From Candidatus Heimdallarchaeota archaeon (GTDB lineage: Archaea > Asgardarchaeota > Heimdallarchaeia > Heimdallarchaeales > Heimdallarchaeaceae), in assembly GCA_021399345.1 (NCBI GenBank), contig JAAFKI010000124.1, forward strand, positions 1 to 64,000: DNA of 64,000 nt. Reading direction: 5' to 3'. Positions 21,523-26,381 of the stretch are shown piece after piece; position 1 is the first letter of the stretch, and each line of letters begins with the position of its first letter. The notes under the pieces are model-generated. The model ran no database searches. It worked only from the letters and a program-made list of their open reading frames with translations, and was not told the DNA's origin. A program made the translations under genes and the position numbers.

Positions 21523-21676
21523 CGGGCTTTAGCTCAGTGGCTTAGAGCTCTCGGCTGTAGTCAATAGACACCCTTGTGAGCAATGATCAAGGTGTCAGCG
21601 GGAGAAACCGAGCGGTCCCGTGTTCAAAAGATTTCAGATGCGTTCTGAAAATTTGAAAATCACGGAAGCCCGACCA
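21523..21676 (+). tRNA. trnY: tRNA-Tyr(GTA) with two introns (21561-21606 at 37/38; 21629-21659 at 59/60) and encoded CCA
   Basis: Acceptor CGGGCTT/AAGCCCG with A73 and CCA; D stem GCTC/GAGC; anticodon stem CTCGG/CCGAG with GTA at 21557-21559; T stem CCGTG/CACGG; BHB motifs. Confidence 0.92.
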
Positions 21677-21678
21677 CT

Positions 21679-22434
21679 TTATCTTTTTCTACCTATTGCA
21701 TAAAAAACAGGAATGAAAATAGTTCTTTTGTTTTCATTTATTATCTCTTTTTCCGCTATTATTTTATTTCTGAACTCCTCTTTTGAAATTAATTTTGATT
21801 CATAAATAAGTCTCCATTCTTGCTCAATATTCATCAAGAGGTTTTCCTTATCCCACACTTGTGCAATTACACCTATTGAAGTATCGAGGTTAGCTGTTTC
21901 GAATAAAGTTTTGAGTTTTCTTCCCATGAAAGGATCAGCACCTTCACTCTTCAGATAATCTGTATGATACTTCCCTAAATTATACTCTGGGTATTCTAAC
22001 CAGCCCCCATAATCTGGTTCTGCTAACGCCGCTACAAACCCTCGTTTCTTACACACTCTACTCATTTCCTTAATTGCTTTCTCAGGTTTAGATAACCATA
22101 GAAAGAGATATTGACAGAGCACAATGTCAAACATACCAGATCTCATTGAGAGTTTCTCAACATTTTCCCGCTTAAAGTTAACATTTTTCACGTTCTCTTC
22201 TGCAAAAGAAAGCATAGATTTATCATGATCAACTGCAGTGATTTTTGCTCGAGTTCTTTTCCTTAGTTCATCTGTAATAATACCTGTTCCACACCCCACC
22301 TCTAAAACTTTCTTTGCTCCTCGCAAGTTTATTTGAGGATATATTTTGTTCCTAACAGATTCTGTCCATTTAGCTTGGCGGACAAATTGCTCATGGATTT
22401 GTGGACCCCAGTTAACATCTTCTCTGTTTGTCAT
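21679..22434 (-). CDS. Class I SAM-dependent methyltransferase (third gene of the radical SAM operon)
   Basis: VLEVGCGTG, FDIVLCQYLFLW and ALAEPDYGG motifs; ATGA overlap with the radical SAM stop. Confidence 0.9.
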   Translation of the reverse strand: MTNREDVNWGPQIHEQFVRQAKWTESVRNKIYPQINLRGAKKVLEVGCGTGIITDELRKRTRAKITAVDHDKSMLSFAEENVKNVNFKRENVEKLSMRSGMFDIVLCQYLFLWLSKPEKAIKEMSRVCKKRGFVAALAEPDYGGWLEYPEYNLGKYHTDYLKSEGADPFMGRKLKTLFETANLDTSIGVIAQVWDKENLLMNIEQEWRLIYESKLISKEEFRNKIIAEKEIINENKRTIFIPVFYAIGRKR

Positions 22435-23735
22435 GAAAATGCTTCCTTACAGATATTGGAGGAGGTAGTGTAATTCAAGGGACATCCACCTCCACAAAGC
22501 TCTCTTTCTGGACAATCTAAACATTCTTCTGGGAGGTATTCCATCTTGCGAAGATTTTTAGATACCTTATGATTCCAAATCTTTCTCCATTTAGTTGTAA
22601 GTATATTTCCTAAGGGTTCAAAATAGCTTTGACAAGGGAGTACAGCTCCATCAGGTTCAATAGCCATTGCGATATGAGATGCTGAGCACTGTTTCATCCC
22701 TAATCCCTTTTCAATAGGATTGAAGTCACAATATCTTGTAGGACTATACCAAATGAAAGACATTTCTTTTTTCTCTGCAGTTTTTAGAATCTTTGTAAGA
22801 ACTTTATCTAGTTCTTCAAGAGGGAGAGCTAATTCTTTTTGTTTTCCTCCACCGGATTTTATAATGCTATTTGCTGCAAAATGATCAATTCCCAAAGAAC
22901 CTAAAAATTCAACTGTCTTTTCTATTTCTTTGACATTAAATGGAGTTAGGGTTGTATTTGTCATGATATAAACTGGAGTTGGGACAACATTCTTTATTCC
23001 TTGTACAGTTTCTTTCCATGCTCCTTTAACTCCACACAATTGGTCATGAATCTTTGAATCATGACTCTCTATTGTTAATTGAAAATGATCTATTCCAGCT
23101 GTAACAAGCTTATCTACTAGAGCCTTATCTTTTAATTCTCTACCGTTTGTAATCAAGCCTGTTATAATCCCTAAATCTTCAGCATATTCCACTAAATCTG
23201 GCAGGTCTTTTCTAAGTGTAGGTTCTCCTCCTGTAAATGTAACATGTGGTACACCTATGTCCCACAGTTTGTCTAGAACTAGCTTCCATTCGCCTGTTGA
23301 TAGTTCCTTAATTTCTCTTGGAGTTTCAACATAACATTTAGTACATTTACTATTGCATTTGTATGTTAGAGCTAAATCCATCCTTAAAGGAGCAGAAAAA
23401 TGAGTCTCGTTTAAAGGACTTATATCTTGAGATAAATGCTGAACAGGATCTATATCAGGTGTTATCATAAGTTCATTAATAGATGTTTTAAGCTCACGAA
23501 GGTCAATTTCTAACTGTTCAATCGATACTCTGTATTTCTTCTTCATTTCGAATAAAATATCAACATCTTCTTTACCTTCAATAATCCGTGAAACAAAATC
23601 TGTTGCAGTTTTGTTTAGATGAAGGATTCTTGTAGCATTAACTAGTAATAAACCTGTTCCACCCTTTTCCTTTCTAAGATGCATTCTAGCAGTAGTATCA
23701 AGATTTCTTTGATGAAAAACTCTATCCTTACCCAT
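22431..23735 (-). CDS. Radical SAM/SPASM peptide maturase with N-terminal PqqD/RRE-like domain
   Basis: CNSKCTKC, FTGGEP, ITNG; SPASM motifs C..S...IEPDG.VLPC and CLDC...CGGGC; N-terminal LHLNKTA...KKKY.V...L..D winged-helix pattern; TAATG overlap. Confidence 0.9.
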   Translation of the reverse strand: MGKDRVFHQRNLDTTARMHLRKEKGGTGLLLVNATRILHLNKTATDFVSRIIEGKEDVDILFEMKKKYRVSIEQLEIDLRELKTSINELMITPDIDPVQHLSQDISPLNETHFSAPLRMDLALTYKCNSKCTKCYVETPREIKELSTGEWKLVLDKLWDIGVPHVTFTGGEPTLRKDLPDLVEYAEDLGIITGLITNGRELKDKALVDKLVTAGIDHFQLTIESHDSKIHDQLCGVKGAWKETVQGIKNVVPTPVYIMTNTTLTPFNVKEIEKTVEFLGSLGIDHFAANSIIKSGGGKQKELALPLEELDKVLTKILKTAEKKEMSFIWYSPTRYCDFNPIEKGLGMKQCSASHIAMAIEPDGAVLPCQSYFEPLGNILTTKWRKIWNHKVSKNLRKMEYLPEECLDCPERELCGGGCPLNYTTSSNICKEAFS

Positions 23736-25417
23736 TATCTTCCACCTCCAGCACATGCGCAAGCACAAGCACATGCACAAGCACAGCCCCCTCCACTGTA
23801 ACTTCTTCCACCACTACTTGATCTAGTTGGTGGAGGTCGAGTTATATTTTTCACAGAATCACGTAATGAGCCAGGTTTATGCACCAACCCAGACATGAAA
23901 CTTTGGACAGGAGCTGTATGAGATATTCTTCCCTGTCGACTTATTTGCATAAAAGGTCCTATACTTTTATGTCTTCTGCGAGATATGCTTGAACCAATTG
24001 CATAATAATAGTAACTTCTCACATACCAACCAGGATAATAATAAGTTCCTCCATATTTCTCCAAACGCTGGTCATAATTTTCATCTACCATAATCCAAAG
24101 GAAGGCATTAAGCAGTTCTGGATTTGATTTACTCATTTCCTGCCATGCTTTATCTATTATTGATTCATAATAATCCCTTGTTTTTCTAGCAGAAAAGCCT
24201 TTCATTTTTTTAGCTACACTTTTTATTTGAGCAACTAGTGCATTTTTCAAATCAGTTTGATGAACAGGTTCTTTTGGTATTGTTCCTGAAGCTGCTCCTC
24301 TCTTCCACTTTTCATCTTCTTTGTTCCTTTTTCGTATACCAACAATCATTGATTTATGTGGTTTTGAAAATTCAGCTATAGTAGCATCTGTAGCAGCAAT
24401 ATCTAATCTTAACTCAGGTTCCCTTGTTCTAATATTTAGATACCCTTTTTCCATTAATTCAAATAGCATTAAAGAAGCAACTTGTGTTAAAGGTCTTTCA
24501 AAAAGTAATGCAACTTCAGAGGGGGCCAGATCTTCTCTAACTCCTCCTCCTAATGAACTAATAGAGGGCGGGAGATATCGTCTAGAGTTTCTTATTTTTC
24601 TAAATATGTACATAATCACAGCTAGTACAATTATGCAAGCTATTGCAGTTGCCATGGGGTATCTTATCATACTGCCCCATACTAATAAAGTCCAAAACGA
24701 ATTGAATGTTTTTGAATATTCTTCAGGAAATGCTACCCCTACTTCATAGCTGAAATATGGTGTTCCTATTGAAGAAAACTGTACATAAGGACCCTCAGGT
24801 GAACTTGCAACCCTGGTAAATTCTGCCATATCTGCAATTCTATAATCAACTTCCGAAATATCTGTGAGGTCTTCAGGGAAATAAAATCTAACAGTTCTGT
24901 TTGTTGATCCGGACGAATAGTCTATCCCATACCATGTTTGATAAAACACAACTGAAGCTAAACCTTCTTGATTATCATTGTAAACCATTTTAGGATTGTG
25001 ACATTCAACCTCTAAGATTCCAGTTTGACCAGCATAAATATAACCTACTTCATCAAGCCAAATCTCTACACCGATATCAATATATTCACTTTTTCTTATA
25101 TCTGTAACTTCTGTCCCATTTAACCAAGCTTTTACAGATTTTAGCTGGTAGTAAACATTAGGGAAACCAACATCAACTACATCTATTGCTTGACCTAAAA
25201 CAGGGTCGTTAACAAACTCAAATCTATAATAAATGTCAATGGATCCATTATCATTTATTGATATTTCAGTGTATATTGATGGAACCTCAAAGTAATAATC
25301 TTCCATTCTTGGATTAGACAAAGTCACATCATTTTCTTTTGCTATTGAAAACGATGGTGATAAGCTGATAGATAAAATCACAATACTAAGAAACACAAAT
25401 ATTTTTTTCAAAGTCAT
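23735..25417 (-). CDS. DUF2207-like membrane protein with C-terminal GGG(CA)6GGGR tail
   Basis: Signal peptide, I.INDNGSIDI.Y ectodomain, TM, LAPSEVALL and LMEKGYL motifs, Gly/Ser-rich tail; SD AAGGGGAG before ATG 25417. Confidence 0.85.
   Translation of the reverse strand: MTLKKIFVFLSIVILSISLSPSFSIAKENDVTLSNPRMEDYYFEVPSIYTEISINDNGSIDIYYRFEFVNDPVLGQAIDVVDVGFPNVYYQLKSVKAWLNGTEVTDIRKSEYIDIGVEIWLDEVGYIYAGQTGILEVECHNPKMVYNDNQEGLASVVFYQTWYGIDYSSGSTNRTVRFYFPEDLTDISEVDYRIADMAEFTRVASSPEGPYVQFSSIGTPYFSYEVGVAFPEEYSKTFNSFWTLLVWGSMIRYPMATAIACIIVLAVIMYIFRKIRNSRRYLPPSISSLGGGVREDLAPSEVALLFERPLTQVASLMLFELMEKGYLNIRTREPELRLDIAATDATIAEFSKPHKSMIVGIRKRNKEDEKWKRGAASGTIPKEPVHQTDLKNALVAQIKSVAKKMKGFSARKTRDYYESIIDKAWQEMSKSNPELLNAFLWIMVDENYDQRLEKYGGTYYYPGWYVRSYYYYAIGSSISRRRHKSIGPFMQISRQGRISHTAPVQSFMSGLVHKPGSLRDSVKNITRPPPTRSSSGGRSYSGGGCACACACACACAGGGR
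23750..23785 (-). repeat. Six Cys-Ala codon pairs
   Basis: TGT GCT TGT GCA TGT GCT TGT GCT TGC GCA TGT GCT; synonymous variation between units. Confidence 0.95.
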
Positions 25418-25566: not shown

Positions 25567-26274
25567 CTAGAAGAACAAATGCTCTTCTGCTTCTCTGTCC
25601 TTTTTTTTCTTTCTTCGCTTTCTTTTCTTAATAGGTTCTTCTTTAGGCTTAACAGGTTCATCCACATCAATTTCTTTATCTAGTTTAGTAGCTATCTCCA
25701 CTAAAGTTTTGTATAACAAAGAACGCATTTTGAATTTTGTTTCTTCATCAAAAATAGTTTTCAAAGAAGCATAAACAGTTTGATTTGCATATTTAGGGAT
25801 TATACTTAGAGCAATTTGTCTAGGATATACATCGTGATCATTCTTAATGGTTTCCAAGATTAATTTTCTCATTTCGACTTTTTTTAGTTTCTTTCTTTCG
25901 TGCAATTTTCTAAGGGCAGCAGATCTAACAACGTCATTTAGATCATTTTTCGCAATATTCAGAAGCATCTCATCAGTATTTGAAGTAGACATGTCACCAA
26001 GTGATTCAGTTATAGCTAATCTAACATTTCTATCTCTTTCATAAGCATAAAGCTCACTCAATTTTTGCGCTATTTCACTATCTTCAAATTTTTTGACCGT
26101 CATTACAGCTTTAATTCGAATTTTATAGTATTTGTCACTCTCACTTATCTGAATAAGAAAATCTACCAAATTCTGACTTTTTTGTTCATTTCCTAATTTG
26201 TCCAATAACTCAAATTTAGCAAAATCGGGAGAATTTTTGAATTTCTTCATCATTTTAGCTAATTCTTGTTCCAT
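25567..26274 (-). CDS. HEAT repeat protein with polybasic C-terminal patch
   Basis: VRLAITESLG and VRSAALRKL repeats; KKRKRRKKKK near the end. Confidence 0.8.
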   Translation of the reverse strand: MEQELAKMMKKFKNSPDFAKFELLDKLGNEQKSQNLVDFLIQISESDKYYKIRIKAVMTVKKFEDSEIAQKLSELYAYERDRNVRLAITESLGDMSTSNTDEMLLNIAKNDLNDVVRSAALRKLHERKKLKKVEMRKLILETIKNDHDVYPRQIALSIIPKYANQTVYASLKTIFDEETKFKMRSLLYKTLVEIATKLDKEIDVDEPVKPKEEPIKKRKRRKKKKDREAEEHLFF

Positions 26275-26381
26275 TACATCTAAATTACAGTTTGTGCTTT
26301 TATAATTTACTAACAATCCAGTCCAAACTTTTCTTAAATTGGGGTTTTTATAACATAGTAAATGAAATATTATGATTCAAG

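Follow-up and report, generated by a model that had tools for sequence, protein, structure and literature searches.

We describe a locus in a 64,000-nucleotide stretch of the genome of a Candidatus Heimdallarchaeota archaeon (GenBank assembly GCA_021399345.1, contig JAAFKI010000124.1, positions 1 to 64,000; we refer to this whole stretch as the window), at which a membrane protein with a cysteine-alanine tail is encoded directly in front of a radical S-adenosylmethionine (SAM) enzyme. Three genes follow one another here, all of them on the minus strand, as are all the features given below. Gene A (23738..25417) encodes a type-I membrane protein of 560 amino acids, as judged from its open reading frame (ORF), its translation, its hydropathy, and an AlphaFold2 model. 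Gene B (22434..23735) encodes an enzyme of 434 amino acids, for which Pfam matches, motifs, and a structural model point to a RiPP recognition element (RRE; RiPPs are peptides made on the ribosome and modified after translation) followed by radical SAM and SPASM domains. Gene C (21682..22434) encodes a class I SAM-dependent methyltransferase of 251 amino acids. The element under study is the end of the gene A protein, the tail GGG-(CA)6-GGGR (23738..23794), in which cysteine and alanine alternate six times.

Read on the minus strand, positions 23735-23800 encode RSYSGGG-(CA)6-GGGR followed by the gene A stop codon TAA (23735-23737). The (CA)6 tract itself occupies 23750-23785, between an upstream GGG (23786-23794) and the C-terminal GGGR (23738-23749). 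Its codons are, in order, (TGT GCT)(TGT GCA)(TGT GCT)(TGT GCT)(TGC GCA)(TGT GCT), preceded by AGA AGT TAC AGT GGA GGG GGC and followed by GGA GGT GGA AGA TAA. Cysteine is encoded five times by TGT and once by TGC, and alanine four times by GCT and twice by GCA. Tandem Repeats Finder reports 23750-23785 as a repeat of period 6, with 6.0 copies and 80% matches. In front of the Cys-Ala tract stands TRPPPTRSSSGGRSYS, made of Pro, Ser, Gly, and Arg; the variable linker of this composition (23795..23850, ..ITRPPPTRSSSGGRSYS) connects the folded cytoplasmic domain to the tail. The protein has 8 cysteines in total, 6 of them within its last 16 residues. A preliminary description of this DNA had pointed out the synonymous codons (TGT/TGC and GCT/GCA), the GGG on both sides, the terminal Arg, the preceding linker, and the crowding of the protein's few cysteines into its last 16 residues, all of which are as we read them. 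Runs of four or more consecutive TGY-GCN units occur in one place only in the 3.27-Mb assembly, and a control with the reversed pattern gives 0.

We have searched for homologs of the gene A protein in three ways, none of which uses the tail as the search key: a word-indexed search, a profile search, and a whole-genome search of 60 relatives. The word-indexed search reports 15 homologs at 28-58% identity, including Heimdall- and Promethearchaeota, and all 11 of the full-length ones end in (CA)n[G](CA)mGGGR; the distant relatives at 28-34% identity retain the tail. The profile search, against 1.84 billion representative proteins, results in 1161 clusters (50% identity) with E <=1e-3, of which 851 have E <=1e-10. 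The best 147 of these 1161 clusters comprise 123 with the canonical tail, 8 with a three-block variant, 3 that differ only after the GGG, 4 without a tail, and 9 fragments that end before the C-terminus. That is, a Cys-Ala tail is present in 134 of the 138 C-terminally complete representatives. Among the 60 relatives, protein A is found in 28 of the 30 genomes of the same family, in 3 of the 7 genomes of one other family, and in 0 of the remaining ones. We looked in these genomes for tails that are missing, frameshifted, or variable in close relatives, which is where the preliminary description had placed the possible refutation of its reading, and the tail is in frame in 29 of the 29 loci with an intact 3' end. 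It is (CA)6 in 24 of them, (CA)5 in 3, and (CA)3G(CA)3 in 2, which belong to the other family.

We compared the last 14 codons, those of (CA)5GGGR, in 27 orthologs of the same family, whose whole-protein identity is as low as 42%. We observe 0 nonsynonymous and at least 23 synonymous changes, with all 14 codons varying silently. By simple arithmetic, a random single-base change in these codons would be silent in about 25% of cases, so the pattern is far from neutral. On the other hand, the amino acids of the linker, at positions -20 to -30, vary freely among the same orthologs. No other 16-residue segment of the gene A protein is as conserved as the tail (majority fraction 0.985 vs. a mean of 0.63). 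Its Ala positions are as invariant as its Cys positions while all four Ala codons are in use, which suggests that alanine is more than a spacer, and which one would not ordinarily expect of a simple Cys-X-Cys metal site.

Four independent studies of sediment and seawater also provide contigs that span the tract, with no indel and no substitution in it and 2-7 differences nearby; these are Logan contigs, which drop rare variants, so that low-frequency slippage may be hidden. Between lineages, the number of units in the first block is 5-6 in the Heimdall relatives and 2-5 in bacterial forms, and the block adjoining GGGR is fixed. Slippage seems to adjust the unit number of the first block. The claim that the tract is selected at the level of the protein, as opposed to being a slipped microsatellite, is borne out by these comparisons, since the orthologs, all found by whole-protein homology, keep an in-frame tail with unchanged amino acids. 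We conclude that (CA)6-GGGR is a functional and strongly constrained C-terminal module under purifying selection on its amino-acid sequence.

Two further observations on the tail can be reported here. One subfamily (P0143, P0144, P0146, P0153, P0156, P0157, P0159, and P0163) has a tail of three blocks, S-CxCACx-S-CACxCAC-VS-CACACA-GGG plus 2 residues, in which Val takes the place of some of the alanines and the terminal residue is not always Arg. In the metagenome runs X3, X9, and X10, short contigs pile up on 23750-23785 only, with a summed depth of up to about 3900 vs. 5-45 on the flanks, and some of the loose ends of these contigs resemble other Gly/Ser linkers. Because of this pile-up, many co-occurring sediment organisms seem to carry the same tail.

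The enzyme of gene B, which the preliminary description did not mention, is the key to the interpretation. Pfam identifies the radical SAM domain (PF04055, 4.5e-24) and the SPASM domain (PF13186, 5.4e-10). The CxxxCxxC motif is CNSKCTKC, at residue 127, and is present in 71 of 71 orthologs; the Tyr directly after it is also found in SkfB. The seven-Cys signature of the SPASM domain is complete (Cx13Gx4C at 350, Cx2Cx5Cx3C at 405, with one more Cys at 429), and the cluster-binding Cys motifs are retained in 69-71 of the 71 orthologs. At the N-terminus, residues 31-82 match the Pfam PqqD family with an E-value of 0.0026, the profile of the gene B family matches the lasso RRE TfuB1 (E 5e-5), and the structural model, whose mean pLDDT (predicted local distance difference test) is 85.8, has four strands and three helices at residues 6-91. 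Taken with the model, these matches predict a PqqD-like RRE, for which the sequence by itself is marginal. The model aligns with SuiB over residues 7-426 (Z 28.3) and with SkfB over residues 16-424 (Z 28.2), and the nearest solved relatives by sequence are the sactisynthase SkfB (4e-29), PqqE (5e-27), and SuiB. This is the complete three-domain architecture of a RiPP-type maturase. The enzyme belongs to no NCBIfam family at cut-off: of its 67 matches, the 25 best are all far below, and TIGR04463, the CrpC family, is absent from those 25.

Genes A and B are tightly joined. The gene B ATG (23735-23733) overlaps the gene A stop as TAATG, with one A in common, and 23 of 27 orthologs have such an overlap, either TAATG or TGATG. 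The codons for the Gly residues that end the tail contain GGAGGTG (23743..23749), 7 nucleotides before the gene B ATG, and from its sequence and position we infer that it acts as the Shine-Dalgarno sequence of gene B. GGAGG before gene B is retained in 26 of 27 orthologs, and 26 of 27 use GGA as the first Gly codon; with this conservation, the Gly codons of the tail may be doubly constrained, by the protein and by ribosome binding.

Across genomes, A and B come and go together. We considered 61 genomes, the window's own assembly and the 60 relatives, and A and the ortholog of B (E <=1e-110 for B) are found in the identical 32, and neither of them in the other 29. The two genes are adjacent in those genomes wherever the contig permits, and B is better conserved, with 65-67% identity where A has 42-44%.

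We also ran a back-translated CACACAGGGR-stop pattern against the GTDB species genomes, which results in at least 120 loci. The loci listed are mostly from Anaerolineae (Chloroflexota); others are from Methanomassiliicoccales and other Thermoplasmatota, Heimdall- and Hodarchaeota, Planctomycetota, and Acidobacteriota, and further ones from Aminicenantes, Hydrogenedentes, Sabulitectum, and Polyangiaceae, so that they span about a dozen differently labelled groups of bacteria and archaea. One of them (L058) belongs to a cultured organism, Ornatilinea apprima P3M-1. Among these loci there are 114 ORFs that end in the tail, and since almost all of them are homologs of gene A, the tail is the hallmark of one protein family and not a portable tag. 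Among the judgeable loci, 53 of 66 of type 1 and 9 of 10 of the archaeal type have the gene B ortholog immediately downstream of A, and 6 of 7 of type 2 have it upstream of A. The only genes that recur in the 120 loci listed are A, B, a Cys-less paralog of B, and the methyltransferase, with a methyltransferase homolog in 59 of them; no protease and no transporter or exporter recurs there.

The Cys-less paralog occurs in Chloroflexota loci (L002, L004, L021, L040, L053, L058, and others), where this second radical-SAM-like protein follows the active enzyme. CxxxCxxC is present in 0 of 42 such paralogs, which have a mean of 2.8 cysteines vs. 14.8 in the active enzyme, and by its sequence the paralog seems to be a partner that has lost catalytic activity. 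Neither the window nor the Heimdall relatives contain it. Two loci, L055 and L093, have a tandem pair of gene A paralogs; both members of the pair in L093 have a tail of the (CA)3G(CA)4 type, and in L055 the second paralog extends past the end of the locus, leaving its tail out of view.

Where in the cell would the tail be found? The gene A protein has only two hydrophobic segments, a signal peptide (residues ~1-27) and a transmembrane helix (about residues 254-279, also present in the AlphaFold2 model), and the sequence RKIRNSRRY comes right after the latter. The AlphaFold2 model, built from 79 homologs with a mean pLDDT of 83.1, has a beta-sandwich ectodomain at residues 43-231 (24725-25291) and a winged-helix-like and helical cytoplasmic part at residues 284-526. 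The linker and the tail are disordered, with pLDDT <50 from residue 534 on. Hydropathy, positive-inside charges, and the model thus agree in predicting what the preliminary description had also proposed, an ectodomain outside and a tail inside, and they predict the cytoplasmic tail to be flexible and within reach of cytoplasmic enzymes.

As for the neighborhood, the start of gene C overlaps the stop of gene B (ATGA). Its product matches Methyltransf_11 (1.4e-21) and Methyltransf_25 (6e-20), and it reaches no NCBIfam family at cut-off, the top match being BioC-like (5e-21). Downstream of gene C, at 21523-21676, ARAGORN and an Rfam scan (E up to 1) report no tRNA, although one with non-canonical introns could escape both. 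Directly upstream of gene A, a gene at 25570-26316 encodes a HEAT-repeat protein (PF13646, 6e-12). We considered it as a member of the cassette and rejected it, as it is without homologs in the 120 other tail loci listed.

The ectodomain and the family of the gene A protein can be placed to some extent. In structure, the ectodomain best matches Ost1/ribophorin I, at its membrane-proximal lumenal beta-sandwich (Z 14-16.6, root-mean-square deviation 2.6-3.0, over ~180 residues), and the N-domains of M1 aminopeptidases rank below it (Z ~12). Ost1 and the gene A protein also both have a single transmembrane helix after the beta-sandwich. As the gene A family is present in bacteria too, we take this likeness as a shared fold, and as no evidence of a link to oligosaccharyltransferase. 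The gene A protein has no match in Pfam or NCBIfam, and the last 45 residues of it and of the Ornatilinea protein have no NCBIfam match even at E 10. Among its 79 relatives there are weak Pfam matches to PF09972 in 3 (E 0.009 or weaker) and to PF20990 in 1, and DUF2207 clusters appear among its language-model neighbors, at 0.94. Like DUF2207 proteins (PF09972 and PF20990), gene A has a signal peptide, a beta-sandwich ectodomain, a transmembrane helix, and a cytoplasmic part, and DUF2207 membrane proteins have a low-complexity Gly-rich C-terminus, as the gene A protein does. We see here a weak signal of distant DUF2207 kinship, with no member reaching the Pfam threshold.

What, then, is the tail for? 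On balance we favor the reading that gene B modifies the cytoplasmic tail of the gene A protein, which would serve as a built-in core peptide; the adjacency and co-occurrence of the two genes argue for this with somewhat better than even probability. The preliminary description had suggested crosslinking, metal or Fe-S binding, or lipidation. Enzymatic crosslinking has the most support among these, because the co-occurrence of the tail with a translationally coupled RRE-radical SAM-SPASM enzyme is perfect.

We can sketch how such a modification might proceed. The RRE and the substrate cleft of B would bind the C-terminal region of A, and 5'-deoxyadenosyl radical chemistry would join Cys sulfurs to carbons of neighboring or cross-strand Ala or Gly, forming thioethers of sactionine or ranthionine type. 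The floppy tail would become a rigid crosslinked knot or ladder. Gene C might then methylate, for example, a remaining thiol or the carboxylate of the invariant C-terminal Arg, although this last step is a guess. With no protease or exporter conserved in the cassette, the modified tail would remain on the membrane protein at its cytoplasmic face, as a permanent, protein-borne "RiPP". The specific product, a thioether ladder that a full-size membrane protein would carry on its (Cys-Ala)n tail, with a methyltransferase as the finishing enzyme, we propose tentatively, as one possibility that may well turn out otherwise. Thioethers appear to be the likeliest chemistry because they are what characterized RRE-radical SAM-SPASM enzymes make with Cys-rich substrates. 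The ladder could include direct Cys-to-Ala links (lanthionine- or sactionine-type) without a dehydration step, and the alanines of the tail may be acceptors or may be needed for the fit in the active site.

Several points weigh against this proposal. What ties gene B to the tail is genomic association. Homology does not dictate the type of reaction, given that the relatives of B include PqqE, SuiB, and anSME, which do not make thioethers. The RRE is marginal by sequence alone (the PqqD match has 18.5 bits, with a cut-off of 23.4), and the AlphaFold2 model, with a pLDDT <50 there, leaves the tail without a structure. Cys-X-Cys repeats are well known for binding metals. About a fifth of the judgeable type-1 loci are without an adjacent B, and two loci, L006 and L029, are without any radical SAM gene within ~3 kb. 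Finally, only some half of the loci, of which many are truncated, show the methyltransferase.

One alternative keeps gene B acting on the tail, by a chemistry that makes no thioethers: epimerization of alanine to D-Ala, C-C crosslinks, or a formylglycine-like oxidation of cysteine. Among the structural neighbors of gene B we do find PqqE and SuiB, which make C-C crosslinks, anSME (Z 25), which oxidizes cysteine, and at a larger distance the epimerase EpeE/YydG (Z 18); and two residues that alternate so strictly would be in keeping with an alternating L,D peptide. Yet the anSME motif C-x-(A/P)-x-R is not in register with the tail, the EpeE match is weak (E 6e-4), and with Cys-rich substrates the precedent is for thioethers (PMC10288494, PMC13692751). 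We regard these other chemistries as unlikely, though worth keeping in mind.

Alternatively, the tail could be an unmodified, metallothionein-like Cys-X-Cys site for a metal or an Fe-S cluster, with the enzyme linked to it for another reason. The tail might keep a cluster or metal for B or pass one on to it, or it might recruit B to the membrane for some other substrate. Cys-X-Cys is the standard motif of metallothioneins, six to eight thiols are close together in a disordered cytoplasmic tail, and the carriers of the tail are mostly anaerobes rich in Fe-S proteins. In the analogous CrpABC system the genes are up-regulated on pyrite, which hints at iron or sulfur handling (PMC13692751). But in metal sites X is variable, whereas here X is an invariant Ala (Val in one subfamily) across phyla whose codons are free to vary; and a metal site accounts poorly for an RRE and a peptide-maturase architecture in B, or for the translational coupling and perfect co-occurrence of A and B. 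Such a site is, in our view, unlikely, yet a serious competitor of the main reading.

Lipidation (S-acylation or prenylation), or a signal that re-anchors the tail in the membrane, we reject as very improbable: clustered cytoplasmic cysteines near the end of a membrane protein do resemble eukaryotic palmitoylation sites, but no acyl- or prenyltransferase is conserved with the cassette, so that this part of the preliminary description finds no support, and the terminus is GGGR and not CaaX-like. A neutral, slippage-prone hexanucleotide microsatellite or a functionless low-complexity tail we reject with near certainty, for the tract is indeed a period-6 tandem repeat whose unit number varies between lineages, but a neutral coding microsatellite would be expected to have frameshifting length polymorphism, and what we find are variants in frame only, of 5 or 6 units, no frameshift or amino-acid change in 27 orthologs in which every codon varies silently, a repeat just 80% pure with a GGGR-adjacent block of fixed length, indel-free contigs in four studies, and retention from Asgard archaea to Chloroflexota.

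Returning to a modification of the tail by gene B, literature searches on the tail strings, on Cys-Ala and ACGX repeats, and on radical SAM enzymes with membrane-protein tails gave no account of this family; the tail strings were found as DNA primers only. The tail of this Heimdall-type (Asgard) membrane protein is probably the site of a chemical modification that has not been described. To our knowledge, nearly all known radical SAM-SPASM maturases belong to short natural-product peptides that are exported, and cases that involve whole proteins, such as QhpC and CrpA, are rare. Here a 16-residue Cys-Ala module that forms part of a membrane protein and is tied to a radical SAM enzyme has been retained from Asgard archaea to Chloroflexota. 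If the tail is modified, this would be a protein modification that is new and very widespread, together with a new class of substrate, in anaerobic bacteria and archaea. It would also offer a starting point for assigning a function to the many hypothetical membrane proteins of this large, DUF2207-like family.

It is instructive to compare this locus with known systems. Gene B has the same three-domain layout as SkfB, AlbA, PqqE, and SuiB, but those enzymes act on short peptides, unlike the substrate proposed for gene B, and PqqE and SuiB make C-C and not C-S bonds. The precursors of sactipeptides and ranthipeptides are short, with a leader that is cleaved and a product that is released and usually exported, whereas the carrier here is a membrane protein of 560 amino acids. 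The crosslinks of QhpC, the gamma subunit of quinohemoprotein amine dehydrogenase, are Cys-to-Asp/Glu thioethers made by a SPASM enzyme. This small periplasmic protein has a leader and acidic acceptors, while gene A has a repeat and a membrane anchor, and there is no sequence kinship between them. In the QhpD/QhpC system, the radical SAM enzyme pre-forms triple intra-peptidyl crosslinks in a subunit that is retained in the mature complex (PMC7876137).

In Methanococcus voltae, CrpC (TIGR04463) crosslinks the C-terminal repeats of the large Cys-rich protein CrpA with ranthionine-type thioethers (PMC13692751, 2026). As in that system, an RRE-radical SAM-SPASM enzyme is encoded beside a Cys-rich whole protein in an archaeal anaerobic host, with the substrate role being a proposal in our case. 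CrpA is soluble and has ten 17-residue repeats with C-x-x-(Q/D) motifs, whereas here there is one 16-residue Cys-Ala tail on a single-pass membrane protein; gene A has no similarity to CrpA, and a methyltransferase is present. The hairpin sactipeptides StsA/StsB(/StsC) and BlaA/BlaB have CxCxC donors and small alternating acceptors on a return strand, which form a nested hairpin ladder (PMC10288494). They share with our locus an alternating-Cys motif and an RRE-dependent radical SAM enzyme with a SPASM/twitch domain. On the other hand, GxGxG provides the acceptors in StsA, a short peptide of leader and core, where tails of the gene A family have CACACA once more as their second block or, in the archaeal form, run on without any break; gene B carries its RRE as a fused domain; and the product would stay on a membrane protein. 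By analogy, then, the system of genes A and B would work like the CrpC/CrpA and QhpD/QhpC type and resembles StsA in its donor motif, and it is a member of none of them.

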